The notes: generated by a model not told the origin, from the sequence alone. Positions 10,380 through 29,135 are shown, counted from the stretch's first letter. The stretch is DNA of 32,000 bases from Sorangiineae bacterium NIC37A_2 (GCA_002085155.1 NASX01000020.1:29518-61517), one strand, 5' to 3'. Program-made: numbers and translations.

Positions 10380-10670
10380 TCACACGACGACAGCTAGGCG
10401 CTCGGGATCGATGTACGGCTTCCCTATAGCCTGGATCGCGCTGCCACCGCGGCCTTCGACTCGCCCGAGGGAAGCGAACAAAACTTGATCCTCAGTTGTC
10501 AGGATGATTCCGCTTAGCTTGGTGCGGAGCTCGACCAGCTCCCGATGATTCAACTCACAGCGAAAGACGGAGAGCTGGAGGTGGTCGCCGTATCCCAGCA
10601 TGAGCTTGTAGACCTGCCGCAGGCGTTTCGGGTCGCAGACGTCGTAAGTGACTAGGTACGAGTGGCGCAT
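10380..10670 (-). CDS. cas2: Cas2 adaptation protein
   Basis: 96 aa. MRHSYLVTYDVCDPKRLRQVYKLMLGYGDHLQLSVFRCEL matches the Cas2 N-terminal beta-strand and Asp. AAGGAAA SD lies between the cas1 stop and ATG 10670. Confidence 0.93.
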   Translation of the reverse strand: MRHSYLVTYDVCDPKRLRQVYKLMLGYGDHLQLSVFRCELNHRELVELRTKLSGIILTTEDQVLFASLGRVEGRGGSAIQAIGKPYIDPERLAVVV

Positions 10671-10681
10671 CGTGTTTCCTT

Positions 10682-12547
10682 TCAGCGGACCCGGAATCCC
10701 GGATAGGAAGGTAACTCTCCCAGCAGAGTTCGGGACAGAAGGCGCGCTTGGATCTCAAGGACGCGCCGATAGCTCAGCTTGTAGTCAAAGACGGGATGGG
10801 TCACGAGCTGGTCCATCCGGCGCTCGAAGGCTTGAATGACCTTTTTTCGCGCTGCCTCTTTGAGTGCCACGGCGCCCTGTCCCTGGACGAAGTCCTCGGG
10901 CGAGACGACGCCGGTGTTGATCACCGAAAGGACCGTCGAATCGGCGATGATCGGCCTGAACTCCTCCATGAGGTCGAGGGCGAGGGAAGCCCGCCCGAAG
11001 CGAGGCTGATGGTAGAAGCCGAGTAGAGGGTCAAGCCCGACTGCGTGCGCGGCCATCGTCGTTTCGCGGACGAGGAGGCCGTAGCAGAACGAGAGGAGCG
11101 CATTCACAGGATCCCTCGGAGGGCGACGGTTGCGCGAGTCGAAAGAGAAGGTCGATTCGAGATCGGCCTTGAGCATCCCCGAGAAGGCCTGGAAATAGAC
11201 GCGGGCGGCGGCCCCTTCGATCCCAAGGAGGGAGTCGATGGAGGACGCTTCCTCGGCTTTTCGTGAAAGCTGCTTGAGCTCGCCGAGCGTTACGTTCGAC
11301 GGTTCACGGTGGTTGCGGCGGAGGAGGGTCCTCGAGTTCAGGATCTTGGTCTTCACGACGGATCGCGCAAAGCGAAGGCAGGTGGCAAGATCGCGCGTCG
11401 CGGCGAACTGAGCGCTCTTGAGTTCGACATTCTTTGGCTCGTTGCCGATCGCTCGCCCGAAGACCCATCCACCCGATGTCGCGAATAGGATCGGAATTCC
11501 TTCCTCCATCAGCCGGCGCTGAGCCTGTGCGGTCATTTGGACCGTGCCGAGGAGAGTGACGCTCGAAGTGTTGGTGATGCGGACTTCGGTCGCCTTTTCG
11601 CCGGGGATCGTTACGACGATGCGCTCGCCTACGAGACGGAGCTGCGCTCCGCGGCCGCGGACGTAGAGGGGGATCTTGTCATCTCGGGCGGGAAAGAGCC
11701 GGCGAACAGGACGGTCGAAGTCGGGGCTCGGTTCAGGGCCTGCGAGCCCCCAAGGATCGTCGCCGACATCGAAAGGATTCGGACCCTCTTCGGGCTCTTC
11801 TTCATCACGGAGATCCTTCAAGACGTTCACTTCGTCTGGGAGGCAAATTCCTGAGAGGGAACACCCGAAGCACTTCGGATCGTCGTCGAGAGGAGGGGGA
11901 CATTGACCTCGCAGGGAAAGCTCGCGTGCGCGGGCGACGGCCCGTCGGACGGTCGCTTCGAGATCGGCGGTTTGCTCGACAGGGACTCGACGACGTTCCG
12001 CGGCGAAGTAGAGATCGCCGCCCTCACATTCATAGCCGTGCTCGCGCAGAAGGAGGACTTGCGCCGCGACCTGGGCTCGCTCCGGAAGATAGGGACCGCG
12101 CGGTGGTTCCTTGCCGCGCTTGTATTCGACCGGACGGACCCTGTTCCCGTCGACTTCGACGATGTCGATCTTGGCGGTGATGCCTAGTTTTTCGGAGGAG
12201 AGCCAGACAGAACGCGCGGAATAGGGACGCTCTTCCTCCTCCTTCGGCTCCTCATCTCCGCTTGCCCGAGCTTTCAGCACCTGCGCCTTGGCATCCACGC
12301 GACGATGCACCGCCTTGCCATCGATCGTGTACCGATTGTCGGCCCATTCGCCCTGGACCCATTCGAGATACATGAGCCGCTCACAATAGAGCACTTCGTT
12401 GATCATCCTCGCCGGGACGAGGTCGGGTACGGAGTCTTCTCGCGGAGGAGCAAGAGGTAGGCTCTTCGCTCGCCCGATCGCGATCTCCCCTGAGATCTCT
12501 TCACTCTCATCCGCGCGTCGCGCCGTGCTGTCCTTGGCTTCGCTCAT
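10682..12547 (-). CDS. cas1: Cas4-Cas1 fusion protein (type I-G/I-U style adaptation module)
   Basis: The N-terminal Cas4/RecB part has YCERLMYLEW, DIVEVD...VEYKRGK and CPPPLDDDPKCFGCSLSGIC (4-Cys cluster). The C-terminal Cas1 part has SRNRRPPRDPVNALLSFCYGLL and GFYHQPRFGRASLALDLMEEFRP. Confidence 0.93.
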   Translation of the reverse strand: MSEAKDSTARRADESEEISGEIAIGRAKSLPLAPPREDSVPDLVPARMINEVLYCERLMYLEWVQGEWADNRYTIDGKAVHRRVDAKAQVLKARASGDEEPKEEEERPYSARSVWLSSEKLGITAKIDIVEVDGNRVRPVEYKRGKEPPRGPYLPERAQVAAQVLLLREHGYECEGGDLYFAAERRRVPVEQTADLEATVRRAVARARELSLRGQCPPPLDDDPKCFGCSLSGICLPDEVNVLKDLRDEEEPEEGPNPFDVGDDPWGLAGPEPSPDFDRPVRRLFPARDDKIPLYVRGRGAQLRLVGERIVVTIPGEKATEVRITNTSSVTLLGTVQMTAQAQRRLMEEGIPILFATSGGWVFGRAIGNEPKNVELKSAQFAATRDLATCLRFARSVVKTKILNSRTLLRRNHREPSNVTLGELKQLSRKAEEASSIDSLLGIEGAAARVYFQAFSGMLKADLESTFSFDSRNRRPPRDPVNALLSFCYGLLVRETTMAAHAVGLDPLLGFYHQPRFGRASLALDLMEEFRPIIADSTVLSVINTGVVSPEDFVQGQGAVALKEAARKKVIQAFERRMDQLVTHPVFDYKLSYRRVLEIQARLLSRTLLGELPSYPGFRVR

Positions 12548-12707
12548 TTACCGAAGGGGCTCCTTTCCCCCCTGTGCTCCCAAGAGAGCTCCGGGCTCTG
12601 CTTGGGCAGTGTGAGAAGCTTAGGGGACCAGGGTGACGCGCGAAACTGAACGGATGAGTGTGAGGGGTTCGGATTTCGACCCAAAGCGGAGGAGGGAGCT
12701 TGGGTCC

Positions 12708-13706
12708 CTAGACGGGCCGCGCAGGGGAGAACGTTCCCGTGTAGCCGTCTGCTTTCTTCGTCAGACCTGCCTGGAGGAGAGTCGAGATGCCGAGGGCGCG
12801 ACGCTCTTCGGCTTTGAGCCGTGTGAGGCGGGGGTAGGCGATGAGCGAGCGCACTGCATCGAGGGAGGCAGGGCGATCCCAAAGGGGCCATGTGAAGTCT
12901 CCGTCGAGGCGACGACCGGTGCACCCGGTCATGACGGGGCGGGAGCCCGCGTTCGAAAGAGGAAAGACGCGGAGGGCGCGGAAACCCAGCCATTCGTGAA
13001 CAGGGAGAAAGCCTCGTTGGTAGCCCGTGTAGATAGCTCCGGGCGTGTCAGAGGCGGGGTCCCAATCGAGGGTGCGCGGAGCCGCATAGTCGACTGCTCC
13101 CAGACGAAGTGCTTGTTCGATGCCGCCTGGGGTCAAATGAGCTCGAATGAGTTCGACTTGCTCCAAAAACTGCGCATTGCGCGCGGTGAGGTCGAAGAAG
13201 GAGCGTTCGACGGTGAGAGCCATGGCGACATCCGGGTCGACGGGGATACCGAGCGAGACGTGGTCCGCCGCTGTAGCGGGCTTCTTGTTGACCTCCGTGA
13301 CGCCGTCGCAGAACAGCGCGGCGGCATAGGCGAGTGATTCTTCGTCCTCTGCGCTCCGACGAGCGTTCGACCAAGCGCGCACGACCGCGAGCGGTGCTTT
13401 TAGCCCTCCGACAGCCTTCGGCCCTTGCTTCTCTTGCTTGACGTACCGGAAGCTGAGCAGAGGAGACTCACTCCAGCGCTTGCAATCCTCGTGGATCGCC
13501 TGAGCCAAACCCTCGAACGACTCGGCGCCATGGAGCACAGGGCGCCAGGCATCAAGCTGCTTCCACGACAGGCGCGGAGGCGGGCCGCCTTGAAGGTGCG
13601 CGTCGTCGAGAACCTGCAAGAGTCCGAGCGCAGCCAAGAAGCCGAGTGGGGTGCCACCGTCGATTCCGGGTATCGTGAGATCTGCGTCCTTGTTGTTGTC
13701 GCTCAT
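12708..13706 (-). CDS. cas8u: Candidate type I-G/I-U large subunit (Cas8u, Csb3/GSU0052-like or Csx17-like), 332 aa
   Basis: I chose ATG 13706..13704, which overlaps the cas3 stop TGA 13705..13703 (ATGA). The longer track ORF from 13988 lies inside cas3. The position directly after cas3 matches I-G/I-U. N-terminus GIDGGTPLGFLAALGLLQVL and C-terminus FTWPLWDRPASLDAVRSLI resemble what I recall of the Cas8u families. The family call comes from memory and gene position only. Confidence 0.55.
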   Translation of the reverse strand: MSDNNKDADLTIPGIDGGTPLGFLAALGLLQVLDDAHLQGGPPPRLSWKQLDAWRPVLHGAESFEGLAQAIHEDCKRWSESPLLSFRYVKQEKQGPKAVGGLKAPLAVVRAWSNARRSAEDEESLAYAAALFCDGVTEVNKKPATAADHVSLGIPVDPDVAMALTVERSFFDLTARNAQFLEQVELIRAHLTPGGIEQALRLGAVDYAAPRTLDWDPASDTPGAIYTGYQRGFLPVHEWLGFRALRVFPLSNAGSRPVMTGCTGRRLDGDFTWPLWDRPASLDAVRSLIAYPRLTRLKAEERRALGISTLLQAGLTKKADGYTGTFSPARPV

Positions 13707-16700
13707 GGCTCCTCCTTCGGGGACTCTTTTTCGCTCTCTCGATGGTCGGCGAGCCGCAAAATGGCTTCGAGCCAGGCCAGGCCAAAGTGCCCGTACTTTC
13801 GCGTGAGCAGCCAGAAACGTTCGGCAATGCCCGAGTCGAAGCGTTCGAGACCATGAGCTGAGGAGCTGCTGAGGGTCATGCCGTCGAGCTCCATGGACAC
13901 CGTTTGTGGTTCCGGATCGAGGACCGGAGGTGCAAACGGTCGACACCATCCATGATGCGAAGCTACGAGATGCAACACGAGATCCCAATCATGGGCCTGG
14001 TCTCGGAGCGAGATGTTGTTTTGAGCGAGGGCAACGGACAAGAGCTCATGGCGCATGCCCTTCGGGTATCCGGAGCGCTGGTAAGCGCGATCTCTTGTGG
14101 CCTGATCGGTCGCCTGAACGGCTGACTTCGCCAAGAGTACTGGCGCGGCGGCCTCTTTCACCTCGTCCCCTCCGTGAAGGAGCAACTGGAAGCGCCGATC
14201 GGCTTTGCCGAGATCGTGAATATATCCGGCAAGCGCGAGATCTTCGGTGAGCTCTTGGGGAAGGCTCAAGGCAAGCGCGAAACGGCGAGCGAAACCGCGG
14301 ACTCCCTCGAGGTGAGTCGTGAGAGAAACGGCCTCACCGAGGAAGCTGCCTTCGTCGTCTTCTGTGGACGAGTCGGCAGCGTCGCTCACAATGGGCGCAT
14401 GTCGGAGCTCGGGCAAGCCGAGAAGTTCCCGGAGTGCTGATGGTGGCACAGGGCGCTTGTGCGCTTGGGCGCGCCAGGCAAGGTCTTGGCCGGCATCCTT
14501 GTCTGTGGGGGCGCGGAACAGCCCGACGCATTGTGTATGGCTTCCGCGCACGAGATGACCAAGGGCAACGCGAGCCCAGGCTGGCGCATTCGGTTGGGCA
14601 AGCACCTGTTCCCGCCATTCGCGGAAAGCTGCTCGCTCCGCGGCAGTTCCGCTTTCATCTAAGTCTCCGGTGAGGACTCGGGGCCCGCTCGGTGCTGCTG
14701 CGTCCCGGATCCAACCCTTCACGACGTCCGGGTGCCAGCGGAGTACGGCGCGGCCCTTTTGTAGGAGTTGCGCCTCATCACCGCGATCGACTACGGGGGT
14801 AGTGCCTGCAGGGTCCCACGAAGCGAACTTCGCATCCAATCCGCCGTATCGGCTCGGCACGACGAGCGTGAGCCCTGGCTTCAAGTCATCTGCATCTGTG
14901 AGCAGCCGCACCTCGCCGCCGCGCCACACGAGAGCAGGGGCGAGAGGAGATTCTTCGAGGTCTGGAGCGCTTGCTCCTTCGACATCGGCGAGTGAGACTT
15001 CAGCGCCAGTCACAATGGCATCACTGCGACCTCGGGCAGCTACCACGCCGAGCCATTGTTTCGCCGCCCAGAGCGGCACGCTGAGGGCTTCGAGCGAGCT
15101 CGGACGGACGAGTTCGAGCACGTCCCGGAGCTTCGGGAGGTTCTCTTGAATCAGGTCGGCGGCGGAGATGTCTGCCCTCCAGACAATCTGGACCTCGGCG
15201 GTGGTCCGGCCGATTCCATGGAGAAAGGGCGCGACGGGAGGGTCGGCATGGGGAGCGGGGGACGTTTGCGCCCAGCGCTCGAGGTGGCTCGAAGTGAGCA
15301 CGGGAGCCACGGAGCGCGGCGCAACAAGGGCGGTCTTCTCGTTCGGTTCGAGCCCTTGCAGCAAGGTGTTCATCGTGTCGATGCCAAAGTCGACCACGGA
15401 ACCGTCTTGTTCATTCGACTTCGTGGCGACTCGGTTCAGGAAGTTCCAAGTATTGAGGAGGGCAGTGCCGTAAATGGGGTCGGGTTCGGCTTTCTCGTCG
15501 ACGCTCCCGGAGCCGGCCAAGATGACCGCCTCCGTTGAGCCCAGGTCACCCAGGCGATCTAGGCGACCAAACCGCTGCCGAAGAGCATCGAGGCTTGCGC
15601 ACTCGGTGATGAGCGCGTCGAAGTCAAAGTCGGCGCCCGCCTCGATGGCTTGCGTCGAAACGACAAGCAGGCGAGGGGAGTCGCTCCTTCTGGTGCGGCC
15701 CGCCATGACCTGCTCGAGTAAGGCGCTCTGCTTCTCGAGCCGGTCCAAAGGACGCATGCGCCCGGTCAGCAGACGCACCGTCCAGTCTTGATTCATCGCG
15801 TCTTCAGCCTGCGAAGCGATCTTTCGAGCTGTTTCGACGCGATTGACGATGATGGCGATGGCCCGAGCGCTGCCTTTGCCGAGGCGCTCCGCTTCGCGCA
15901 CCGCCGCCTTAGCCAGGGCCTCTCCGGCTTTCACCGGGTCGCGGGGCGTATTCACCTGGCGGAGCAGGGCCGTTTTCTTCCCGATGAGTCGGGCGTTCAG
16001 ATGTGGGTTTTCACGGTCCTTCGCGATGAGCCCGAAGGTGTCGTCCGAAGGGCTGGCGACCGTCGCCGACATGCGCACGAACTGGAGAGGACGGGAGAGA
16101 GAAGCGCTCGCTCCCTTCGTGTACCATTTGGTGAGCGCACCGAGAGTCTCCTCAAAGGGGCGTGCGAGATGCACCTCATCGAGCAGGAGCAACGTGTCAG
16201 ATCCGAGGAGCCCTGCGTGCACCGAGCGCATGCGGTCGGAGACGCCATAACCGCGGAACAAGAGACGTGAACCCACCTGGTCGACCGTGGAGGTGAGAAT
16301 GACGGGTTGGCTCGGAGACTTGGCCCACTCCGATTCGCGCGGCATGCCTCCGCGCAAGATCGCGGGCAAAAGCGGGAGCCCATCGCGGTTGCCCGACAGG
16401 TCGCGCAGGGCCTTGGCCGCGTCCCGGAGGATGCCGTCCTTGGCCTCATTGAGCTTCTTCGCGATAGCCGCGGCACGCTCGAAAGCCTGATCGACAACAA
16501 CCCGCCTGTCCACGACAAGCACGATGCGCCGCGATTGCTTTCGTTCCGCGGGGGGACGCGCAGCATCTAGCGCGAGCGCAAACACGGCGATATCGAGCGT
16601 GGCCGTCTTTCCCGCGCCTGTCGGCAAGTCGAGAGTCGAAGGCCAACCAGTCGCGTGAACACGTTCGAGCAGCCGCGTCTGCCAGTCGAAGGGCTCACGG

Positions 16701-16744
16701 CCCCAAAGGGCTTGGAAGAAGGCGGGGAAGGAGGAGGGAGTCAT
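13703..16744 (-). CDS. cas3: Cas3 helicase-nuclease of I-G/I-U architecture (N-terminal SF2 helicase, C-terminal HD domain)
   Basis: Walker A LDLPTGAGKTAT and DEAH box LLLLDEVH. The C-terminal HD motifs are LAGYIHDLGKADRRFQ and HLVASHHG. N-terminus FFQALWGREPFDWQ. Confidence 0.92.
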   Translation of the reverse strand: MTPSSFPAFFQALWGREPFDWQTRLLERVHATGWPSTLDLPTGAGKTATLDIAVFALALDAARPPAERKQSRRIVLVVDRRVVVDQAFERAAAIAKKLNEAKDGILRDAAKALRDLSGNRDGLPLLPAILRGGMPRESEWAKSPSQPVILTSTVDQVGSRLLFRGYGVSDRMRSVHAGLLGSDTLLLLDEVHLARPFEETLGALTKWYTKGASASLSRPLQFVRMSATVASPSDDTFGLIAKDRENPHLNARLIGKKTALLRQVNTPRDPVKAGEALAKAAVREAERLGKGSARAIAIIVNRVETARKIASQAEDAMNQDWTVRLLTGRMRPLDRLEKQSALLEQVMAGRTRRSDSPRLLVVSTQAIEAGADFDFDALITECASLDALRQRFGRLDRLGDLGSTEAVILAGSGSVDEKAEPDPIYGTALLNTWNFLNRVATKSNEQDGSVVDFGIDTMNTLLQGLEPNEKTALVAPRSVAPVLTSSHLERWAQTSPAPHADPPVAPFLHGIGRTTAEVQIVWRADISAADLIQENLPKLRDVLELVRPSSLEALSVPLWAAKQWLGVVAARGRSDAIVTGAEVSLADVEGASAPDLEESPLAPALVWRGGEVRLLTDADDLKPGLTLVVPSRYGGLDAKFASWDPAGTTPVVDRGDEAQLLQKGRAVLRWHPDVVKGWIRDAAAPSGPRVLTGDLDESGTAAERAAFREWREQVLAQPNAPAWARVALGHLVRGSHTQCVGLFRAPTDKDAGQDLAWRAQAHKRPVPPSALRELLGLPELRHAPIVSDAADSSTEDDEGSFLGEAVSLTTHLEGVRGFARRFALALSLPQELTEDLALAGYIHDLGKADRRFQLLLHGGDEVKEAAAPVLLAKSAVQATDQATRDRAYQRSGYPKGMRHELLSVALAQNNISLRDQAHDWDLVLHLVASHHGWCRPFAPPVLDPEPQTVSMELDGMTLSSSSAHGLERFDSGIAERFWLLTRKYGHFGLAWLEAILRLADHRESEKESPKEEP

Positions 16745-16867
16745 TTCTTGGTTGCCTTTCGTGCGCGAGGCGCCTCACGCGCGCGGTGCTCAGTACTTCT
16801 GGAGCGCGACTGTGCGGTTGGTCGGGGCTCGTCCAGTGCCGCTGCCTTCTCTTCCCCTTGTCGAACT

Positions 16868-16893
16868 CAATTCCCTCGAATTCGAGGAAGTTG
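16868..16893. promoter_or_regulatory. Imperfect 26-bp palindrome (perfect 14-bp core CCTCGAATTCGAGG) in the orf106-cas3 gap; candidate operator
   Basis: CAATTCCCTCGAA|TTCGAGGAAGTTG. The arms pair at 11 of 13 positions, the first 7 perfectly. It lies about 125-150 nt upstream of the cas3 ATG (16744). This is one of only two sizeable intergenic gaps in the cas cluster. Confidence 0.3.
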
Positions 16894-16986
16894 AACCGGG
16901 GTTGTGGCTGCGGTTGGGGCAATAGAGGCTCGGCATGTGATCCTTCACTCTGAGCCACTTCCAGACGAGTAGGGCATGACGAATAG

Positions 16987-17307
16987 TCATAGATGGCCAG
17001 CCAGATAGTCGAACACGAAATCTCCGCCGTCTTCGTAATGCCCTAATAGCCGCCCCGTGGCACCGTCGCTCCATGCGTACAGTTCGTGCGTGCTGCCAGG
17101 TACCGGATCACCTTTTAGCTTCTTGAACGTACGCGATTTCGGAAGCGGGCGCCGGAGGTCAACGTGTGCGTCCTCGTCAAGAGAAGCTAGGCGCGAAGGA
17201 TCCGACTCCTCGTTCGTTACCTTCGGTGACCAAGCGAGGTCGCTCATGCCCGCGCCGTTTGTGAGCAGGCTAGTACCCTGGGCGGAGTGCAGGCATCGAT
17301 TCGTCAT
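16987..17307 (-). CDS. Hypothetical 106-aa protein, no recognised family
   Basis: ATG 17307..17305 overlaps the CARF-HEPN stop 17306..17304 (ATGA). By my hand count 38 of 106 codons end in A/T, visibly more than in flanking cas genes, so coding status is uncertain. Confidence 0.4.
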   Translation of the reverse strand: MTNRCLHSAQGTSLLTNGAGMSDLAWSPKVTNEESDPSRLASLDEDAHVDLRRPLPKSRTFKKLKGDPVPGSTHELYAWSDGATGRLLGHYEDGGDFVFDYLAGHL

Positions 17308-18572
17308 GGTTTGCCCAAAGCCAGCTCAGGGAAGAACGGCAGGCTCGCTTCGTCGACGTTCGCGAGGGAGAGCGCGTCGCCCCACAGTCTTTCGAAGACG
17401 GGGCCTGCCACGGGCACGAAGCCATGGGCGAGGATGGAGCGGTTGCGGGCGACGAGACGTGACTTCGGACCGCTCAGCCCGGCGGTCCGGAACTTCTGAC
17501 CAAGAGGATCACCCAGGGCTTCAAGCAGAGCGTAATCGTCCTGGAGGCCAAGCGAGACAACGCCATCGTTCGCGCGCGCTGCCCACATCGTTCGCAGGGA
17601 TTCAGGGACCTTCTCCAGTGGGACTTCCTCGGTGCTCTCGATGCCATGCCCTTCCTTGAGCGCGACCTGTGCGATGGCCTCGAGAGCGCGATAAAGGCGC
17701 GCGGTAGCGTCGTCGAATCGCCCTTCGTCCTTGCGTCGCTTCGCGTTGGCCAGGAGATCGAGAACATGATGACTGCTCGGAGGCTGCGCCTCTAGCAATT
17801 GCCCGAGATGCGTCATTAGCTGAGCAGCGCCCGCGAGCACCCGTTCGCTTCTGGTCGGGCCGAGCACGGCACGCAGATCGTTCGCTGACTTGCTAACGCT
17901 CTCGAGCCGGTTCTTGCTGGTCGTGTGATCGAAGCGGTCCCACGCATCGAGCGCCTTCGCGAGCTGCTCGAGGGATGACAGCTCGCGCTTTCGGTCGGGG
18001 CGGCTCACGCGCTTCATCGTCACGGCGGCGATGTTCGCCGCCGCGAGGTAGGCGTGCTGGTCGAACAGCACGACGAAGTCGTCCACGGCTTGGTGGCCGA
18101 GTGCGTCCCACGGGTTCTGTGCGTGACGGACAATCTCCGAGCCGGAGACCACGACGCCCACGCCGTCCTTGGTGCGCTCATTGCCGCCCACGTACGAGAA
18201 CACGCAGGGCCAGCGACTCGCCTGGATACCGATCGCCGCCGACATGCACTTGGTGCCGCCCGTAAGATCGACCACGACCTGGAAGGATTCGCCACGCGCT
18301 GCCCACTCAGCAACGACGGGCGTCAACTGCCGCAGGTGGTCGAGGCAGCTCGCGAGATCCTGCCCCTCGGGGAGCTCGAACAGGTCGTACCTGCCCGCAT
18401 CGAGATCCACGCCCTCTGCGCGCGCCATCGGAACGACCTTCGACGCGACATCGTCCTTCGTTTGTGGCGTGTGAACGAACCTGACGCGCACGGGGCGCCA
18501 CTGCTTGAGCGCCGCGACGATCGGCTCGTGGCTGCTTCCGACGGTGCAGATCAACAGGGTTGAGCTGCTCAC
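17304..18572 (-). CDS. CARF-HEPN ancillary protein (Csx1/Csm6-like, resembles the TIGR02710 family); predicted cOA-activated RNase
   Basis: CARF-like N-terminus LLICTVGSS ... VVDLTGGTKCMSAA. C-terminal HEPN motif ARNRSILAHGF (R-x4-H). I chose GTG 18572..18570. It is preceded by AGGAGG (18584..18579) with a 6-nt spacer and overlaps the cmr6 stop (GTGA). The track start at 18605 is also a GTG and adds 11 aa. Confidence 0.8.
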   Translation of the reverse strand: MSSSTLLICTVGSSHEPIVAALKQWRPVRVRFVHTPQTKDDVASKVVPMARAEGVDLDAGRYDLFELPEGQDLASCLDHLRQLTPVVAEWAARGESFQVVVDLTGGTKCMSAAIGIQASRWPCVFSYVGGNERTKDGVGVVVSGSEIVRHAQNPWDALGHQAVDDFVVLFDQHAYLAAANIAAVTMKRVSRPDRKRELSSLEQLAKALDAWDRFDHTTSKNRLESVSKSANDLRAVLGPTRSERVLAGAAQLMTHLGQLLEAQPPSSHHVLDLLANAKRRKDEGRFDDATARLYRALEAIAQVALKEGHGIESTEEVPLEKVPESLRTMWAARANDGVVSLGLQDDYALLEALGDPLGQKFRTAGLSGPKSRLVARNRSILAHGFVPVAGPVFERLWGDALSLANVDEASLPFFPELALGKP

Positions 18573-19768: not shown

Positions 19769-19770
19769 CG

Positions 19771-20157
19771 TCAGGTCTCCTCGAAGGTCGCCTGGACGGC
19801 ACGCTTGAGCCAGGTCGCGACCTGCAGCAGCTCGCGCGTGGCCATCATGTAGCTGTCGGCGTCGAGCCCGCGAACACGCTGGGCGAGGTTCTGTGCCGTT
19901 GCGTCCTCGAGGCCAGGGACGCCCGCCGACGCGAGATGCCCGAGGAGGACGTCTCCACGGTTGCCGAGGCGCTGCACTGAGGCGATGGCCGCGCAGAGGC
20001 CGCTCCGCAGAATATTGGCGCCGAGATCGTTGACCGCGATCTTGTAGTTCTCACGAGATTGCTTGTCGGAAGGCACGCTGTCGACCGCGCTGTAGGCGTG
20101 CAACGCGCGTTGCTGATCGCGCAGCAGCGGCTTCTTTGGAGCTTCAGCCTTGGCCAT
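19771..20157 (-). CDS. cmr5: Cmr5 (type III-B small subunit)
   Basis: I chose ATG 20157..20155 (128 aa). The track ORF from 20271 runs into cmr4. Alpha-helical, with LGANILRSGLCAAIASV ... ELLQVATWLKRAVQA, typical of Cmr5. Confidence 0.8.
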   Translation of the reverse strand: MAKAEAPKKPLLRDQQRALHAYSAVDSVPSDKQSRENYKIAVNDLGANILRSGLCAAIASVQRLGNRGDVLLGHLASAGVPGLEDATAQNLAQRVRGLDADSYMMATRELLQVATWLKRAVQATFEET

Positions 20158-21007: not shown

Positions 21008-22161
21008 GGGGTGTTCCTTGTGGGGCGCCAGACGCCGGGGACGACGCGGCCGAAGCCCTCGTCGGTGCGAGTGCCGAGGGCGGCGAGCCAGAGCGACTTG
21101 GCCTCAGTTTCGCCGAAGGGCTTCCCGTCGACGCGCTCGAAGAAGTACACGGCGCCCGGGGGCACCATGCGCGAGGTGGGCTTGGGTTCGCCCTTCGCCA
21201 TGTCCCAGCCCGACACGTGGATCGGACGAAGTACGAACGCCGCGCGCAGGATGACGTTGAGCCCGGCGAGCTGACCTAGATACTCGCCGTTCGTGTTCAC
21301 GAAGCCGTCGGGCAGCCAGCCCTTCGCGAAGCAGAGCGGCGAGGCCGCAACGAGCCGCAGACCCGGGCTGGCCGCACGGAACGCCTCGATCACGCGCGCC
21401 GGAGGCTCGAACAGCGTCGTCGGCAGCGACTCGACAAGCGAAATCCGCGAGTCAGAGCCCAACGTCGCGACCTTGGGCAGCTCGCCGGCAGGCAACGCGA
21501 CCTCGACTCCGAGTGCCCACTCGCCACCAGAGTCGAGGGTCTCGACGACGTCGTGCGAGAAGAGGACGCCGTCGTCGGTGGTGAGTTCCTCCGGGCGGAC
21601 GCCAACGTGGACCTGAACGCGTCGCGTCGTGCCGAGCGCTTCATCGCGAACGCTCACAGGCTTGCCGGCGAGCCACGAGACGAACTCCTCGCTGCTCCAC
21701 CATCGAGGACTCGCCAGCGGCTTCTGCGCGTCGTCGGGCACCGGGCGCCAGAGCGCCTCTCGGGCATCGTCGTTGTCGCGTCCAATCGTCGGCGCGATGG
21801 GCTGCACGGGATCGAGTCGATGAACCTCGTTTCGACCTTCGAGCCAGAGCGCATCGAGAGGCACGGGCCAGGTCGCGTCCTCGACGCGCCAAGCGGCGCC
21901 ATGCTCGCGACGAAGCACCAGGGTTCGTCCGAGCTGAATGGGCTGCGTGCGGCTTCGCCAGTCGTCTGGCGTGAAGGTGGTGCCCGACCGGGTCTCTTCG
22001 CCGCGCCCCCACAGCGAGCGCAGCGCTCCGAGCACCGTCGAGGGCCAGGGCCAGTCGAGCCCGTGGCCGCGCCCCGAGGCGCTCGTGTGCCAGCCCCGAC
22101 CATCCTTGGCGAAGAAACCGTCTCGTGGGACCAGGGCCAGGTGCGTGGTGGTGGTCGTCAT
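21004..22161 (-). CDS. cmr3: Cmr3 (type III-B)
   Basis: I chose ATG 22161..22159, which overlaps the cas10 stop (ATGA). LALVPRDGFFAKDGRGW ... WPWPSTVLGALRSLWG is Cmr3-like. Confidence 0.85.
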   Translation of the reverse strand: MTTTTTHLALVPRDGFFAKDGRGWHTSASGRGHGLDWPWPSTVLGALRSLWGRGEETRSGTTFTPDDWRSRTQPIQLGRTLVLRREHGAAWRVEDATWPVPLDALWLEGRNEVHRLDPVQPIAPTIGRDNDDAREALWRPVPDDAQKPLASPRWWSSEEFVSWLAGKPVSVRDEALGTTRRVQVHVGVRPEELTTDDGVLFSHDVVETLDSGGEWALGVEVALPAGELPKVATLGSDSRISLVESLPTTLFEPPARVIEAFRAASPGLRLVAASPLCFAKGWLPDGFVNTNGEYLGQLAGLNVILRAAFVLRPIHVSGWDMAKGEPKPTSRMVPPGAVYFFERVDGKPFGETEAKSLWLAALGTRTDEGFGRVVPGVWRPTRNTP

Positions 22162-23939
22162 GCTGCCACCTCCTGGCTGCGGCGTTCGCGGATCGCAGCG
22201 CGATCGAAGGTGCGGGCGATGAGCAGCCTCGCGACCCACGCGTCAACTTGGGAATGAAGCGCCTTGTATTTAGCTATCGGATCGAGGGCGAGACCGACTT
22301 CGTCGGGACGCAAGCCAGAACCCTCGATGCCAGAGAGCGCGCGTTTCACCTCGAGCGCGAGCACTCGCGACCAGCCGTCGTCATGCGCCTCGTCGGGTTT
22401 GGGCAGGCGCCTGAGCATGTTGGCGATCTCGTAAACCTTGCGCGAAGGGATTCGGTCTCCCAGCATCGCGGTCGCATCGTTCAGCGCGCAAACCGGGTTG
22501 CTGTTCCACGGCGCGCACCACGTACGCGTTCCGCCGGAGCGTTTGTCGACGAGCACCGCGAGCGCGTTGCGATCGCGCTTCGCCTCGCGTTCGGCCTGAC
22601 GCCCGAGCGTGAGCAGGTCACCCATGCTCTCCATGACGTGGCCGATTCCGAGGCCCACCGACAAGGTCGGGCGCTTGTCGGCGGCGAGCGAGGCGCAGGC
22701 CGTGGCCATCGCGCTCTCGAAGGCAGTGCGCAGCGCATCGGCGCAGGCGAGCGCCTCGGGCAGCGACACGAAGGCAAGCACGTCGTCACCGCCCGCGTAG
22801 ACGAGCGCTCCACGATACTGCTGTTCGACAACGTTACGAGCCGCATCGGCGAAGCCTGCGAGGGCTTTCGAAAACGCACGGTGTGCAGCTGCGGAGTCAA
22901 GCTCGTTGATCGCGCGCCCCATGCGGTCGCCATCGGCGACGAGGCAGGCGACGTAGGGAAACGGCTCATCGAGCTTTCGGAAGAGCGGCCTGACGTGCTG
23001 ACGGCCCCACGCTTCCGGGTCACCCTGAAGTCCCTGTTCTTCGAAGACGGAGCGCCAGCGGCTTGGAAGCAAAACGCTGCCATCGAAGGCGAAGGGCGAC
23101 ACGCACGGGAGGTCCGTGCGAGCGACAGGCGACACGCCTGCCGTGTTGCACGCCGCCTTCAAGGCATCGAGCTCGGTCTTTGCCACCTGGCCCGCGCGTG
23201 CGAGCCAAGAGGCCAGCGCGACGTTCACCACGGGCACGAACTGGTCGGGCTCTCCACCGGCGCGCTTCACCAGCCCCACGGCGTCGAGCTGTTCGCCGTC
23301 GGCGATGCGGTAGCGACGAGCATTGTCACTCGCCCGCTGCCGAGGAGGCAGAAGGACCGACTCGCGCGCTCCGTCGAGACTCGACTTCGGCACGTTCCCG
23401 CGCCCCTGTGTCCAAGGGTCGAAGTCGCGCAGCAGCTTGCGACCGGCGATGGCTTGTTCGAGCTGACGGCGCGTCTCTGCGTAGTCGCCGAGAGGTAGCC
23501 AGCTCGCGGCGAACTCGAGGAAGCTGTCGATTTGCTCGGTCCATACCGCGTCGATGTTCTGCGCAAGCAGCCCGACGCATTTCGCCTTTACAGGTGCCGC
23601 GACCTGGTCGCGCCAGTAGTCGGCCACGGCCTTGCGCGCTGCTCTCGCGAGCTGCTGCGGGTCGACGCCCTCGGGCACCTCGGCAAGGAGCTTGTTCGCG
23701 ATGTTCTGCGGCGGTGTGTTGTCGGCGCGCAATGGCTTGAGGCACCCCTCCAGTTGAGGGTCTCCCTTCTCGAGTGACGGGAAGATGAGTTCGGCTCTAC
23801 CATCGATGAGAGCGCGTGCAGCAGCGCGTCCCAGCTCCGAGAGCAGATGGCTGCCGTACCAAAGATCGCGCGTTCGACGCGCCTGCGCGATGAAGTCCTG
23901 TACAGGGCCGAGCGTGATGAGGAGCAGATGCTCAGTCAT
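22158..23939 (-). CDS. cas10: Cas10/Cmr2 with no N-terminal HD domain and an intact GGDD cyclase motif
   Basis: I chose ATG 23939..23937, which overlaps the cmr1 stop (ATGA). The protein starts directly at MTEHLLLITLGPVQDFIAQARRTRDLWYGSHLLS. Palm motifs are CLVADGDRMG and ALVYAGGDDVLAF. At 593 aa it is too short to hold an HD domain. Confidence 0.92.
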   Translation of the reverse strand: MTEHLLLITLGPVQDFIAQARRTRDLWYGSHLLSELGRAAARALIDGRAELIFPSLEKGDPQLEGCLKPLRADNTPPQNIANKLLAEVPEGVDPQQLARAARKAVADYWRDQVAAPVKAKCVGLLAQNIDAVWTEQIDSFLEFAASWLPLGDYAETRRQLEQAIAGRKLLRDFDPWTQGRGNVPKSSLDGARESVLLPPRQRASDNARRYRIADGEQLDAVGLVKRAGGEPDQFVPVVNVALASWLARAGQVAKTELDALKAACNTAGVSPVARTDLPCVSPFAFDGSVLLPSRWRSVFEEQGLQGDPEAWGRQHVRPLFRKLDEPFPYVACLVADGDRMGRAINELDSAAAHRAFSKALAGFADAARNVVEQQYRGALVYAGGDDVLAFVSLPEALACADALRTAFESAMATACASLAADKRPTLSVGLGIGHVMESMGDLLTLGRQAEREAKRDRNALAVLVDKRSGGTRTWCAPWNSNPVCALNDATAMLGDRIPSRKVYEIANMLRRLPKPDEAHDDGWSRVLALEVKRALSGIEGSGLRPDEVGLALDPIAKYKALHSQVDAWVARLLIARTFDRAAIRERRSQEVAA

Positions 23940-25348
23940 GGAGCCACCACCGTCGTCTGCTTCGTGGCGTGGAGCCAATCGAGGAACGCCTGGCGCAGGC
24001 TGGCCTTGTTCGCGAGCACGGAGAAGCGCGCGGTGTCGCCCTGGGCAACAAGGCGTTCGAAGGGGGCCACGGTTGCCGGATCGACCTCCTTCTCGTTGGG
24101 TCGACCTTGCTTTGGTCGTGCGAGGCCAGCCTGCGCATCATTCGGGAGGCTGCGGTTCAGCCAGAGCGCGCACGGAGCGAAGGTGCCATCAGCGAGCGGC
24201 AGCGCCTTCACGATAAGCGGGCTCGCGAGGCGATCGTGTTCGACGTTGCCCGCACGCCAGCGCAGCTCGAAGGCACCAGGTTCGTCGTAGCGCTCGTTGT
24301 TTCGCCCCTTGGTCTGGAACTGCCCAATGATCGGAAGCCCGAACCCTGCGCGCGGCCATGCAGCCGTCGCGTTGTGCCTCGGCGCGTGGGCGCTCGTCTT
24401 GTTCTTGATGCGCCGGACCTTGTCCGCCTCGGGCCAGTTCGAGATCGAAGGGCGGTTTGGCTGCGCCTTGCCGGTTCCGGGCTCGCGGGCGCGGCTACCC
24501 TGCTGGCCCGTCGTGCCTTGGCGGAACTCCTTCAGCCAGTCGAGCGCCTTCGTCCATGCCGTCTGGGCGTTGCGATCCGCGCTGCCGACGTGGACGGACG
24601 CGCCGCCGAACCACGGCACGTCTTCTGGCGTCCTGGTGGGTGCCGCGAAGATGTCGAGGCCGAACAGGTTCGTGAGCCCTTCGCGAGTAGCGGTAGTCGG
24701 CAGCCAGCCGTTGACGTCACCGATGACCTTCAGGCTCCCGAGTCCGCGTCGCGTGCGCCCCCCGTAGCCGCCGAAGAGAATCCACGCGCGCAGGGCGTTC
24801 TTGAGCTCGACCTCGTCGTTGTCGGTACCCGCAACTTTCAGTGTGAGTACGAACTTCGTACCCGGCTTGCGACGCGGAGCCGGAGGCTTCACGACTTGAC
24901 CCTGCCGCTTTTCGGCTCGCGCGGGCCACAAGGCATACGCGCCGGGCGTTTGCTGAAGGTCGATGTCGCTCGTATCAGGCGAGCCGGGCGTACCCTCGAC
25001 GCTGACGCGGATCTCTACCGCCGAGCGCCCGCCATCATCGGTCGCCGCGCGCCCCCACAGGGCGCTCTCCCGCTTGTACAGCGCGTCGGCGTTCGCGTAC
25101 TGCGCGGCGTACAGGGCTCGCCACCAGAAGCGCAGGTGCCCACGCACCGACGGCGCGCGGATCACGTCGACGTCGTCGATCTCGCGGGTCTGGTGGCTGC
25201 CCCCGAGGATCGGCGTGACGACCTCCAAGTGTACAGAGATCACCCGGAACGCTGGGCCGCCCCGAACCTGATAGGGCCTGCTAGGAGGGAGGTCCTCAAT
25301 GCGGGGCGCGGGGAAAGTGGGACCGCTCATTGAATTGCCTTTGGCCAT
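23936..25348 (-). CDS. cmr1: Cmr1 (type III-B RAMP)
   Basis: VVTPILGGS...IRAPSVRGHLRFWWRALY and the G-rich loop GGYGGRTRRGLGSL. ATG 25348..25346 shares one base with the csb2 stop TGA 25350..25348 (TGATG). An alternative ATG lies at 25330. Confidence 0.85.
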   Translation of the reverse strand: MAKGNSMSGPTFPAPRIEDLPPSRPYQVRGGPAFRVISVHLEVVTPILGGSHQTREIDDVDVIRAPSVRGHLRFWWRALYAAQYANADALYKRESALWGRAATDDGGRSAVEIRVSVEGTPGSPDTSDIDLQQTPGAYALWPARAEKRQGQVVKPPAPRRKPGTKFVLTLKVAGTDNDEVELKNALRAWILFGGYGGRTRRGLGSLKVIGDVNGWLPTTATREGLTNLFGLDIFAAPTRTPEDVPWFGGASVHVGSADRNAQTAWTKALDWLKEFRQGTTGQQGSRAREPGTGKAQPNRPSISNWPEADKVRRIKNKTSAHAPRHNATAAWPRAGFGLPIIGQFQTKGRNNERYDEPGAFELRWRAGNVEHDRLASPLIVKALPLADGTFAPCALWLNRSLPNDAQAGLARPKQGRPNEKEVDPATVAPFERLVAQGDTARFSVLANKASLRQAFLDWLHATKQTTVVAP

Positions 25349-26994
25349 CACTCCCGCCCCCGACAAAGCCCGACCCCAAAATATCGCCCCGCCCCAATCA
25401 ACACCGGACCCTCTACAGGTTCCTCGAATCCCATCTCCACATGCACACAAACACGTGTGACTCCCTTTCCGCCCGCATTCTTCTGCGGAAAGGGCATGTA
25501 GTTTCGAGCCGGGGGAGCCGCGTCGAAGAGCGAGCGGCGAATAATTTCAACCCAGCGGGGCGCGGGGAGGCCGATGCGCTCGCACGCTTTCATCACAATC
25601 TCTTCCGCATTGCGGGCGGCGGCGGCCGCCTCCTTCGGGTCGCTCGAATGAAGGTTGCCCGGGTTCTTATCGAGGGCCACGGGTGTGACTGAACCCCAGC
25701 GGCGCGACCGCTCGGTCCAGTAGCGCGGGGTGAGAGCTTTGCGTGGATCGGTGTCGACTACGCGCTCGAGTCGGAGGGCTCCGACGCGGCCGAGGGTGAG
25801 GCGGAGGCCGCTTTGTTCCCAGCGGCCAATCGCGCGGAGGACGGCCCTTCGCTCTTTGCTCTCTATGTCACGCGGCAAGAGGACAGCGACGCCGAGCACG
25901 TTGCCGGAGGCGTAAGGGGAGGCGACGTCCGCGAGGGGGACGTAGGCGACGTGCGGGCGGTCGAGGGGCTTTCCGGTCGAGTCGTGCCCGCTGAGGACGG
26001 CGGGAATCGCGCCGTCGGCGTGGCTGAGGAGGGCGCCACGCAGCGCCCGGGTGATGTCCTCTGTTTTGGAAAGCTTGACGCCAACGCGGCGGCCGCTCTC
26101 GCCGGCTATTTCGCGGAAGACGACCCATTCGCCAAACACAGACGAGGCGGACTCGGAGGCCCTTTCAGCGCCTTCGAGCTCGTAGCTCTGGTGCACAGCA
26201 GGAAGAACTCGAGGTTCGAATCCCCGATGTCTTTCAAAGGCACCCTCGAGGCGACTGAGCTGTCCTTCACTCACAATACGCATAGAAACTCCTTGCTTCG
26301 CAGAGGGGCGCCAGCGCTTGAGCCCCGTGCGCTCGGGCGTCTTTCCTTCGATCACTCGACAGGACACGAACGACGACGAGTGTCCGAGTCGCACCATCTT
26401 CTGGCTGAGGGCCTGGAGTGACGTCTTCACGTCCTCGGGCGCTTCGGCGCCGGGCCAAACGTAACGAACCTGAGGCACATGCGGCGCCATCGCGGGCATC
26501 GTGCGCGCCTGACGCCCCCTTCGGTCCGGGAGCATCTTCTGCGCGCGGTCGGGATCGCCCTTGCCGTCGTCTGCGACGATCTTGGCGGTTTCGGCGAGGA
26601 AGGCCTTCTCTGCTTTGGCCAGGGCAGTTCCTGCCGATTTGATCGCCTTCTTGTCGCCTGAGGCTTCGGCCGTGGCGAGAGCTTGGCGCGCACGCTCGAG
26701 CTTCTCCTCGGCCGCGCCCCAGCCGTCTACGACGCCAGAGGAGTTTCCCGGGACGAACGTCGGGATCAGCGAACGCTGTTCCGCGTCGCTGGCTTCGATC
26801 TCGGGGGCGCCTTGTCGTTCGAGCCATTCGAGGGCCGGGCGTGCGGACGAGGTAAGCTCTTCGTGTTCATGAGCGGTCGCCACGAGCGCCGAGAACAGGC
26901 GCGCTGGGTGGGGGGGCCACTCGGGCGCGCTTCTGTCGTTGAAGCTCGTCGCCACGTAGCGGCCCGTGAGGAGCTCGACCTCGAGAGCAATCAC
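25348..26994 (-). CDS. csb2: Csb2 (type I-G/I-U Cas5-Cas6 fusion, GSU0054 family)
   Basis: MIALEVELLTGRYVATSFNDRSAPEWPPHPARLFSALVA is the characteristic Csb2 N-terminus. The start is GTG 26994..26992 and overlaps the csb1 stop (GTGA). Confidence 0.88.
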   Translation of the reverse strand: MIALEVELLTGRYVATSFNDRSAPEWPPHPARLFSALVATAHEHEELTSSARPALEWLERQGAPEIEASDAEQRSLIPTFVPGNSSGVVDGWGAAEEKLERARQALATAEASGDKKAIKSAGTALAKAEKAFLAETAKIVADDGKGDPDRAQKMLPDRRGRQARTMPAMAPHVPQVRYVWPGAEAPEDVKTSLQALSQKMVRLGHSSSFVSCRVIEGKTPERTGLKRWRPSAKQGVSMRIVSEGQLSRLEGAFERHRGFEPRVLPAVHQSYELEGAERASESASSVFGEWVVFREIAGESGRRVGVKLSKTEDITRALRGALLSHADGAIPAVLSGHDSTGKPLDRPHVAYVPLADVASPYASGNVLGVAVLLPRDIESKERRAVLRAIGRWEQSGLRLTLGRVGALRLERVVDTDPRKALTPRYWTERSRRWGSVTPVALDKNPGNLHSSDPKEAAAAARNAEEIVMKACERIGLPAPRWVEIIRRSLFDAAPPARNYMPFPQKNAGGKGVTRVCVHVEMGFEEPVEGPVLIGAGRYFGVGLCRGRE

Positions 26995-28325
26995 GACGCC
27001 GTGGGCTCCTCAACGACCGTGAGCTGCCGGCTCTTCCGAATCAGACCGACGAGCTTCGGTGCGGGTGTGAGAGTCAGAGGCTCTTCCAGCCAAGACATGC
27101 CGAGCGCCGCGGCGGCCTGTTTTGCCTGATCGAGGAGCTCCTTCGCCGTAACGCGGTCGAGGGAGAAAGACTTCGCTTCGCCGCCGTCACTCGGGAGGAG
27201 CTCGAGATTCAGCGGACCGAGGGCACGGAGGGCACAGCGGGAGCGGAGATCGTAACCGTTGTCTCGTTGGTAGGCGATGGCCGCGAGAGCAAGCGCGGCC
27301 AGGAGAGTTCGCGCGGCGTCTTCAGCTCTTCTACGATTTTCTCCCTCGAGCCGTTCACCGTCGGCAGTCGTGGCGAAGCGGAGGCGACGGAGCGCAGGGA
27401 GGGATAGAACAGTGAGTTGCTCGGCGTAGTCGACGGTGACGCCGCCGGTTTCGGCATCTTGCGAAGGCTTTACGTTGCCGTGGTTGATGACGGCGGGGGA
27501 ACCCGCCTTCTCGCCTCCCCTCTTCAGGAGCACGGGCTGCTTCTTATCGAGCTTCGCCTCGTTAGGATCCGTGGTCCAATCCTGAGACCCGCCTTCACCC
27601 GCCTGCTTTGCCTCATAGATGTCCGTCTTCTCGATGCCGGTCGGATCGATGCGGCTCGAGGTGCGCGTTCCGAGCTCCACCCCGACGCCGACGACTTCAC
27701 TCACAATGGCCCGCTGAAACTTCGAACCGAGGCCGCCTTTCGGACCGGTCGAGTCCCAGAGGCCAAAAACGAGCGAGGCCGGACACAAGGTGAAGAGAGG
27801 AGTCGCGTTCGACTGGGAAGCTTCAGTGAACCGCCGACCGGGATCGGTGTAACGGAAGGGCTTGCCGTCGAGGAGGCTGTCGCGAAGCAGCGCGTCGGCG
27901 AGACGATGGGGCGCTTCCAGCGTCGTGATGTAACCATCGCCTCCGAGGCTCGAGAGGTCGAGGGCGGGGTCATCGTGGGTTGCGCCCGTGAAGTCGACAC
28001 GAGCGAACGGAAAGCGGAGCTCGCCTCGGTCGTAGCCATCGAGGAGAGCCATCTCCATGCGGTTCGCTTGGGAGGCGACCGAATCGAGGACCACACAAAG
28101 CTTCGGGACGCCTTCGATTCGTCGCCATTCGAGGGCGTACTTCGAGCGGCGCCGCTCGTCGCGACTCTCGCCGACGGGCACGGGTACCTTTACCGCGTCC
28201 CCAAATGTGGGCGGGTAGAGCTTGTCATCGGGCCCGCCAAGCGGCTCGAGGCGAGTCACCGCGCGGAAGCCCGCGGCGGTTCCGGAGACGGCGTTTTTGA
28301 GATCTTCGTAGGTCAGCTTCGGCAT
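26991..28325 (-). CDS. csb1: Csb1 (type I-G/I-U Cas7 backbone, GSU0053 family)
   Basis: ASLVFGLWDSTGPKGGLGSKF, TRTSSRIDPTG and VINHGNVKPS are typical of Csb1/Cas7u. ATG 28325 is preceded by the purine-rich GAGAAGAGA. Confidence 0.88.
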   Translation of the reverse strand: MPKLTYEDLKNAVSGTAAGFRAVTRLEPLGGPDDKLYPPTFGDAVKVPVPVGESRDERRRSKYALEWRRIEGVPKLCVVLDSVASQANRMEMALLDGYDRGELRFPFARVDFTGATHDDPALDLSSLGGDGYITTLEAPHRLADALLRDSLLDGKPFRYTDPGRRFTEASQSNATPLFTLCPASLVFGLWDSTGPKGGLGSKFQRAIVSEVVGVGVELGTRTSSRIDPTGIEKTDIYEAKQAGEGGSQDWTTDPNEAKLDKKQPVLLKRGGEKAGSPAVINHGNVKPSQDAETGGVTVDYAEQLTVLSLPALRRLRFATTADGERLEGENRRRAEDAARTLLAALALAAIAYQRDNGYDLRSRCALRALGPLNLELLPSDGGEAKSFSLDRVTAKELLDQAKQAAAALGMSWLEEPLTLTPAPKLVGLIRKSRQLTVVEEPTAS

Positions 28326-28368
28326 CGGGTTCTCTTCTCGATTGGGCGAGGCTCAACGTCCGCAGCCC

Positions 28369-28397
28369 ATAGTGGATCGTAAATTAGATCAAATCAA
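28369..28397 (-). promoter_or_regulatory. Putative promoter of the csb1-led operon
   Basis: On the minus strand: TTGATT (28397..28392), 17 nt, CACTAT (28374..28369). This lies in the AT-richest patch upstream of csb1, about 40 nt before the ATG. The -10 match is weak. Confidence 0.25.
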
Positions 28398-29109: not shown

Positions 29110-29135
29110 GCCCTTCGGACCGTTGTCCGAAGGGC
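29110..29135. other. Perfect 11-bp GC-rich stem-loop in a non-coding stretch
   Basis: GCCCTTCGGAC-cgtt-GTCCGAAGGGC. There is no adjacent T/A tract on either strand. Confidence 0.3.

Follow-up and report, generated by a model that had tools for sequence, protein, structure and literature searches.

How a type III-B CRISPR (short palindromic repeats, clustered and regularly interspaced) module with no array and no cas6 gene of its own could be supplied with guide RNA is a question raised by a stretch of 32,000 nucleotides (nt) from Sorangiineae bacterium NIC37A_2 (GCA_002085155.1, NASX01000020.1:29518-61517), referred to below as the window. All operon genes of the locus lie on the minus strand, from position 28325 down to 10380, in the order csb1-csb2, then cmr1-cas10-cmr3-cmr4-cmr5-cmr6-csm6 (a CARF-HEPN gene)-orf106, then cas3-cas8u1-cas4/1-cas2, followed by a leader and an array of 45 repeats. 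The initial annotation of the window saw in this a cmr module nested inside a rearranged type I-G operon, an arrangement it could not place as described. We find that the Cmr module lacks cas6, cas1/2 and an array and that a type I set is present at the same locus, which is the composition of a composite type I/III-B locus. On sequence evidence, it is likely that the I-G and III-B systems share Csb2, the single array and Cas4/1-Cas2, and that a mobile Cmr cassette was inserted at the csb2/cas3 junction.

Organisation of the type I-G operon

We compared the window with 80 species-representative loci anchored on Csb2, one per species, from a genome collection, which were annotated using tblastn and hidden Markov models (HMMs) built from the window proteins. 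In 75 of the 80 loci, cas3 stands directly after csb2. The contig ends past csb2 in three of the remaining five, and the other two carry unrelated genes (L003; loci of our surveys are numbered in this way) or cmr1 (L008) at this position. A small cas8u1-type homologue was detected in 73 of the 80 loci, immediately downstream of cas3 wherever it was found. Published layouts agree, as csb1-csb2 followed by cas3-cas8u1 is the standard myxobacterial I-G layout (PMC11237760) and the Thermus gene list reads cas7-csb2-cas3-cas8U1 (PMC5529391). Because the survey and both layouts give the same order, the I-G genes of the window form a normal operon of the Cas8u1 variant that one insertion has interrupted, and the rearrangement proposed initially falls away; the order initially taken as canonical, cas3-cas8u-csb1-csb2, belongs to the Csx17 variant of I-G.

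Families were assigned by NCBIfam and Pfam profile searches, with bit scores read against the curated cut-offs. The 14 family assignments first made were confirmed by their profile scores, except that the gene called cas8u belongs to the small NF049934 family and not to Csx17. The operon opens with csb1 (Cas7g; 26991-28325, 444 amino acids (aa)), which scores 57.9 bits against TIGR02570 (cut-off 38), matches PF09617 at E=8.7e-46 and has a G+C content at third codon positions (GC3) of 0.737, similar to that of the other I-G genes. It overlaps by 4 nt with csb2 (25348-26994, 548 aa), encoding the Cas5-Cas6 fusion that is the I-G pre-crRNA (CRISPR RNA) endonuclease. Csb2 scores 271 bits against TIGR02165 (cut-off 45) and is full length, residues 1-545 aligning to model positions 1-490 of 492, and all 15 sequences of an alignment share its His518, close to the C-terminus. 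Beyond the insertion, the cas3g helicase-nuclease gene (13703-16744, 1013 aa; TIGR02621, 747 bits, cut-off 400) encodes a protein with a C-terminal HD domain, the cas3_HD model matching aa 808-938 of 1013. The small cas8u1-type gene, of the 'Cas3-extension family' (12708-13706, 332 aa; NF049934, 186.8 bits, cut-off 65), overlaps cas3 by 4 nt; its product has no Csx17, Pfam or PDB match, and published gene lists name the gene in this position cas8u1 (PMC11237760; PMC5529391). The adaptation genes are a cas4/cas1 fusion (Cas4g/Cas1g; 10682-12547, 621 aa; NF049935, 727 bits, cut-off 560) and cas2 (10380-10670, 96 aa; TIGR01573, 32.4 bits, cut-off 24.5). None of Csb1, Csb2, Cas8u1 and the CARF-HEPN protein gave a useful match in sequence searches of the PDB.

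Insertion of the cmr cassette

The profile-assigned gene order confirms that the Cmr block lies between csb2 and cas3. The block spans 25330-16987 and cas3 starts at 16744, so the figure of about 8.6 kb given initially for the type III spacing is right. GC3 is 0.70-0.74 in csb1, csb2, cas3, cas8u1, cas4/1 and cas2 compared to 0.77-0.88 in cmr1-6 and csm6, and these steps at both borders argue for an inserted cassette, consisting of cmr1-6, the csm6-family CARF-HEPN gene and an APE2256-CARF gene, at the csb2/cas3 junction. The window Csb2 is closest to that of L003-L007 (59-94% identity) and groups with these I-G-only loci on a neighbour-joining tree of 93 Csb2 sequences; in L004-L007 (59-74% identity), csb2 is followed directly by cas3, without cmr genes. 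On the same tree, the cmr-adjacent Csb2 sequences are spread over at least five separate lineages, and Cmr proteins 80-90% identical to those of the window were found in quite different contexts. The junction beside cas3 is variable, with PemK in L008 and L155-157 and the orf106 remnant in the window.

The same nesting was expected in the closest relative, L003 (JAEYYX010000127.1, 344-12091), whose csb1 and csb2 are 96% and 94% identical to those of the window. It is absent, and KilA-N and Fic genes follow csb2 there. After them comes a second divergent csb1-csb2-cas3-cas8u1 set (csb1 44%, csb2 38%, cas3 39% identity), which suggests either rapid turnover downstream of csb2 or a chimeric assembly of this metagenome-assembled genome (MAG).

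The cassette encodes a complete Cmr complex. Its first gene, cmr1 (23936-25330, 464 aa; TIGR01894, 47.8 bits, cut-off 28.65), starts 17 nt past the csb2 stop codon, and its product has 1175 homologues, with 62-100% identity among the 120 matches listed. The cas10/cmr2 product (22158-23939, 593 aa; TIGR02577, 190.6 bits, cut-off 79.4) matches only Cmr2_N and palm2 in Pfam. It carries the cyclase motif GGDD, in YAGGDDVLAF, and has no HD nuclease domain, residue 5 aligning to residue 238 of Pyrococcus furiosus Cmr2 (4w8y), past the HD domain of that protein. The Cas5-like Cmr3, which binds the 5′ tag (21004-22161, 385 aa), is the sole family call below its cut-off (TIGR01888, 44 bits, cut-off 100.4); PF09700 is on record for the exact protein, and Cmr3 homologues occupy the same position in related loci. 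The Cas7 backbone and target-RNA nuclease Cmr4 (20144-21007, 287 aa) matches TIGR02580 over its full length (205 bits, cut-off 87), and its conserved Asp region was read by eye in the sequence. The remaining subunits are the Cas11 small subunit Cmr5 (19771-20157, 128 aa; TIGR01881, 32.8 bits, cut-off 27.9; PF09701) and Cmr6 (18569-19768, 399 aa; TIGR01898, 127.9 bits, cut-off 51.1).

Two further genes close the cassette. The CARF-HEPN effector of the TIGR02710/Csm6 family (17304-18572, 422 aa; TIGR02710, 216 bits, cut-off 83.9; PF09670, the Csm6 HEPN, and PF22205) has an R-x4-H motif, RSILAH, within RNRSILAHG, and its gene accompanies the cmr genes in most related loci. Between it and cas3 lies orf106 (16987-17307, 106 aa), which was not among the 14 genes first named. 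Alignment places it on residues 1-45 plus 292-357 of a Cas_APE2256 protein of 358 aa (L095:18063-19139; PF09651/TIGR02619). The orf106 product keeps the conserved C-terminal ~65 residues at 76% identity and has the lowest GC3 of the locus, 0.636. In relatives, a Cas_APE2256 gene follows csm6 (L095:18063-19139; L159 18024-19106). By these alignments, orf106 is what remains of a CARF accessory protein of ~358 aa, of the Cas_APE2256 family, after an in-frame deletion that took away its CARF core, and it may be inert or act as a deregulated effector domain; all other reading frames of the locus are intact.

The genes from csb1 to orf106 are tightly packed, with overlaps of 4-14 nt or gaps of 2-17 nt, and are predicted to be translationally coupled. 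Wider gaps of 242 nt and 160 nt lie ahead of cas3 and cas4/1, and the former may contain an internal promoter. A promoter and terminator scan of 10000-29600 was uninformative, with 1 promoter-like site compared to 1.2 expected and 22 terminator-like sites compared to an expected 14.3±3.9, and no terminator-like site in the gap between orf106 and cas3 or in that between cas8u1 and cas4/1.

Supply of crRNA to the Cmr complex

Within the 32-kb window, there is no second array and no Cas6-like gene besides Csb2, as the initial annotation had it; the window holds a single array and a single cas4/1-cas2 set, and Csb2 carries its sole Cas6-type domain. The 45 repeats of the array (6785-10062, minus strand) are 36 nt long, and its 44 spacers measure 35-41 nt. 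The repeats are identical in 44 cases, and the one degenerate copy is at the leader-distal end, far from cas2. The 317-nt leader (10063-10379, minus strand) was assigned by position, from cas2 to the first repeat, the degenerate repeat being at the other end. In the transcribed orientation the repeat reads CCTTCTCTCGTGAACTCACGAGAGCCCCATTGAAGC. It forms a hairpin, with a stem of 8 bp and a 4-nt loop, that is followed by a 12-nt tail, CCCC and then AUUGAAGC, and it matches the 'G-type' repeat of myxobacterial I-G arrays, of 36 bp with the tail TTGAAGC (PMC11237760). In Thioalkalivibrio sulfidiphilus, the C-terminal domain of Csb2 is the processing nuclease, which cuts 4 nt 3′ of the hairpin, giving a handle of 8 nt, and remains bound to the 3′ hairpin (PMC9638904). 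The repeat geometry of the window fits this cut and handle as judged from sequence, and the 8-nt 5′ tag predicted earlier is supported and would be AUUGAAGC.

How a Cmr complex would receive crRNA from such an enzyme was presented as a puzzle in the initial annotation. It is largely answered, since Cmr1-6 of Haliangium ochraceum have been reconstituted in E. coli together with Csb2 and an array (Steens et al., bioRxiv 10.1101/2023.06.23.546230); genes for the Csb2 C-terminal domain also stand beside cmr1 in relatives of the window locus. The Haliangium genome carries an array-less III-B locus ~5 Mb from its I-G locus, and myxobacterial III-B clusters usually have neither cas6 nor adaptation genes (PMC11237760). 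Read most simply, these observations would make the Csb2 Cas6 domain the usual source of crRNA for this Cmr clade. The crRNA would then be handed off and trimmed at its 3′ end as in other type I/III pairs, a step that we infer for I-G.

Nesting in related genomes

The survey of I-G loci for csb2 followed by cmr1 that had been proposed at the outset gave one such case (L008) among the 77 resolvable loci of the Csb2-anchored set, and nesting is thus rare among I-G loci. In a second survey, anchored on Cmr1, 49 metagenome loci extended 1.5 kb or more upstream of cmr1. The Csb2 C-terminal (Cas6) domain lies no more than 700 nt upstream of cmr1 in 12 of these 49, as a full-length csb2 in six and as a stand-alone C-terminal half (Csb2 model positions ~250-492) in the other six; some I-G gene is present in 20 of the 70 loci of this survey. 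Nesting in or beside I-G operons is common and recurrent for this Cmr clade.

The junction of the window (csb2-cmr1...cas3) also occurs in L008, L155-157 and L116. One of these, GCA_027493655.1 (L157), has the order csb2CTD-csb1-csb2-cmr1-6-csm6-PemK-cas3, where csb2CTD denotes the stand-alone C-terminal domain, and a protein identical to its Cmr1 is indexed in 195 blocks of public assemblies. Many metagenome assemblies show this nesting as well. Elsewhere, the cassette occupies other junctions of the I-G operon. It lies between cas8 and csb1 in GCA_053501875.1 (L159; cas3-cas8-[cmr1-6-csm6-APE2256]-csb1-csb2), after csb2 in a Logan contig (L158; cas3-cas8-csb1-csb2-X-cmr1-6-csm6-HepT-cas2) as well as in L085 and L137; L101 has it between cas3 and csb1, and L149 after cas8u1. 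The cassette is without its own cas6, array, cas1 and cas2 in every layout seen. A 21.6-kb cluster of a Nannocystis MAG is entered as 'Hybrid(I-G,III-B)' in Data Set S2 of PMC11237760. The nesting, which the initial annotation could not place, therefore has matching cases in GCA_027493655.1, L008, L116 and metagenomes, relatives at other I-G junctions and a catalogued hybrid cluster. Recurrent embedding of one Cmr cassette at multiple I-G junctions was not found described in the literature searched.

Genes encoding only the Cas6-like C-terminal half of Csb2 adjoin cmr1 or lie upstream of csb1 (L108 4280-5092; L143 7759-8517). Further examples are found in L087 (2-1168, in tandem), L008 (7670-8641) and L155 (5989-6909), and on the divergent strand in L141, L146 and L150. 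By sequence, these proteins look like dedicated 'Cas6g' enzymes derived from Csb2. In L108, a gene for a WYL/WCX/HTH regulator (2638-3657), with no equivalent in the window, lies between divergent cas4/1-cas2 and the Csb2 C-terminal gene that precedes cmr1; its product may control transcription of that composite locus.

On four related contigs, the Cmr module is limited to cmr1-cas10-cmr3: L154 (=L134, FWPU01004673.1) 10001-21428, L096 268-8622, L135 1-10894 and L108 4100-9808. GGDD is intact in the Cas10 of all four. We did not find cmr4, cmr5 or cmr6 on these contigs, nor, in L154, across a further 10 kb upstream. The three genes are joined to complete I-G operons by 4-nt overlaps or very short gaps, in either gene order, with L154 reading cmr1-cas10-cmr3-cas3-(295 aa)-csb1-csb2. 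In a Cas10 tree, the four loci do not form one clade and are interspersed among full cmr1-6 modules. Their products could be chimeric effectors of I-G and type III; alternatively, cmr4-6 could be located in other parts of the same genomes. These contigs are the part of the data likeliest to repay further work.

A model of the composite locus and its alternatives

In the shared-locus reading that we favour, the array would be transcribed from the cas2-proximal leader, and Csb2 would cut every repeat 4 nt 3′ of the hairpin to leave the 8-nt 5′ tag AUUGAAGC. Part of the crRNAs would remain on Csb2 and assemble with Csb1 and Cas8u1, together with Cas3, into a DNA-targeting Cascade. Other crRNAs would go to Cmr through recognition of the tag by Cmr3/Cas10, with the 3′ hairpin trimmed by host nucleases. 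On a target transcript, Cmr4 would cleave the RNA and the HD-less Cas10 would make cyclic oligoadenylate, which would activate the CARF-HEPN RNase, and Cas4/1-Cas2 would provide spacers for both effectors. That both effectors load crRNAs from the shared array is suggested by the Haliangium precedent, which is the support for this part of the model. The likely benefit, by analogy, would be that type III acts as a second line against phages that evade type I by mutating the protospacer adjacent motif (PAM) or the protospacer, as shown for the I-F/III-B pair of Marinomonas (PMC5576922).

Several points weigh against this model. The evidence for sharing in this organism is sequence comparison, and ~40 kb of the 380-450 kb source contig was covered, so that a second array or a separate cas6 is possible elsewhere. 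Csb2 is reported to stay on the 3′ hairpin as part of Cascade (PMC9638904), and we found no report of the biochemical hand-off step to Cmr for any I-G system. Some of the contrast in GC3 could come from the composition of the proteins or from expression level and not from foreign origin. Finally, NF049934 (Cas8u1) is taken to be the large subunit from its position and naming.

The two systems might be mere neighbours, with the Cmr cassette sitting in a defence island and either using a cas6 and an array elsewhere or being inactive, and with Csb2 serving the I-G Cascade only. Most of the source contig lies outside the inspected sequence, the junction beside cas3 is occupied by toxin-antitoxin or decayed genes (PemK in L008 and L155-157; orf106), and 37 of the 49 related Cmr loci with at least 1.5 kb upstream have no Csb2-type gene immediately ahead of cmr1, which means that the clade can exist apart from I-G genes. 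We nevertheless regard this explanation as unlikely, given the missing cas6, array, cas1 and cas2 in all layouts seen, the recurrence of I-G linkage in at least five Csb2 lineages, the tight translational coupling predicted from csb1 to orf106 and the service of Csb2 as the processing enzyme for Haliangium Cmr. It is less probable again, and very unlikely, that csb1 and csb2 are accessory RAMP (repeat-associated mysterious protein) genes recruited by the type III module, with cas3-cas8u1 a remnant. They are apparently co-transcribed and coupled with cmr1-6 and stand 8.6 kb from cas3, and in some relatives only the C-terminal half of Csb2 is kept beside cmr1. However, Csb1 and Csb2 score as full-length I-G equivalogs, their GC3 fits cas3 to cas2 and not the cmr genes, their nearest relatives are in plain I-G operons, and each of cas3, cas8u1, cas4/1 and cas2 remains intact. 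That csb1 and csb2 were mis-called type III RAMPs was rejected on the basis of HMM scores, composition and phylogeny.

A physically chimeric or interacting machine could also be imagined, for example with Csb2 docking on Cmr, or Cas10-Cmr3 capping a Csb1 backbone. The four contigs on which cmr1-cas10-cmr3 alone is joined to complete I-G operons are in keeping with this, as is an I-G structure that reportedly has no Cas5-type subunit holding the 5′ handle (PMC9638904). Yet no chimera is needed in the window, since it carries complete cmr1-6 and complete I-G sets, and the three-gene loci are short metagenome contigs whose cmr4-6 could lie elsewhere in the genomes; we consider such a machine quite improbable here. 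A broader conjecture, to which we give a small chance, is that the Cmr clade is a long-term I-G satellite that has co-evolved with the Csb2 Cas6 domain. In loci of this kind, co-translation from one csb1-csb2-cmr operon could then permit direct physical hand-off of Csb2-bound crRNA to Cmr3/Cas10, and the relatives with cmr1-cas10-cmr3 alone, fused to I-G operons, could represent a later stage, a chimeric effector in which Cas10-Cmr3 caps a backbone of Csb1. If true, such a chimera would offer a way towards a type I complex that bears Cas10, comparable to type I-D.

Genes flanking the locus

Upstream of csb1 are genes for a small DUF433 protein (28681-28893, plus strand) and a 1312-aa SNF2-family helicase (29559-32000, plus strand), with HicA/HicB toxin-antitoxin genes further out (L001 883-1774). 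From these genes, the CRISPR locus appears to lie in a neighbourhood rich in defence and toxin-antitoxin genes. On the array-distal side are a GH59 glycoside hydrolase gene that runs off the window (3-2465, minus strand), a HEAT-repeat protein gene (3669-5519, minus strand) and an open reading frame of 341 aa (5547-6572, minus strand) with no family match. Profile searches found no Cas-related family among the flanking open reading frames of the window.

Comparison with known systems

The locus is a clean, intact example of an established category, III-B modules that rely on the Cas6, array and adaptation genes of a type I system, and by itself it raises no further question, since earlier work reconstituted Cmr function with the support of Csb2. 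What the related genomes add is the picture of one widespread Cmr cassette (cmr1-6, csm6 and the APE2256 CARF gene) at several I-G junctions and with several Csb2 lineages, and the I-G/III-B pair is a convenient system in which to ask how a product-bound Cas6 can still feed a second effector.

The backbone is closest to the Cas8u1-variant I-G systems of Sorangium, other myxobacteria and Thermus thermophilus, which have the same six families in the same relative order, and share the 36-nt hairpin repeat ending in TTGAAGC, the C-terminal HD of Cas3 and the Cas4-Cas1 fusion. Unlike these plain operons, the window has ~8.6 kb, comprising cmr1-6, csm6 and the CARF remnant, between csb2 and cas3. 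The III-B module of H. ochraceum resembles that of the window in having neither array nor cas6 in a myxobacterial host that has an I-G system as well, where Csb2 processes the pre-crRNA and ATTGAAGC is the end of the I-G repeat. It differs in that the two loci are ~5 Mb apart whereas the window cassette lies inside the I-G operon, and in its effectors, SAVED-CHAT/PCaspase compared to a CARF-HEPN RNase in the window.

The same junction, csb1-csb2-cmr1-6-csm6-…-cas3, is found in L157, which differs in having one more gene upstream, for a free-standing Csb2 C-terminal domain, and the toxin PemK where the window has the CARF remnant, and whose Csb2 is only ~53% identical to that of the window. In L159, the same cassette is found between cas8 and csb1, and its APE2256 gene is full length. 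The Nannocystis MAG cluster is likened to the window here by its entry in the PMC11237760 catalogue and not by gene order. More distant parallels are the P. furiosus locus, where a Cst type I system and its associated Cmr module occur together (PMC4666368), the I-F/III-B sharing of Marinomonas documented in PMC5576922, and MxI-B/III-B of Myxococcus. In all three, a III-B module without its own Cas6 or adaptation genes relies on the Cas6, array and adaptation genes that a co-resident type I system provides. The partner in the window is by contrast a type I-G system whose Cas6 activity is fused to a Cas5-like domain, and the Cmr genes interrupt the type I effector operon, whereas in those three systems they lie beside it.

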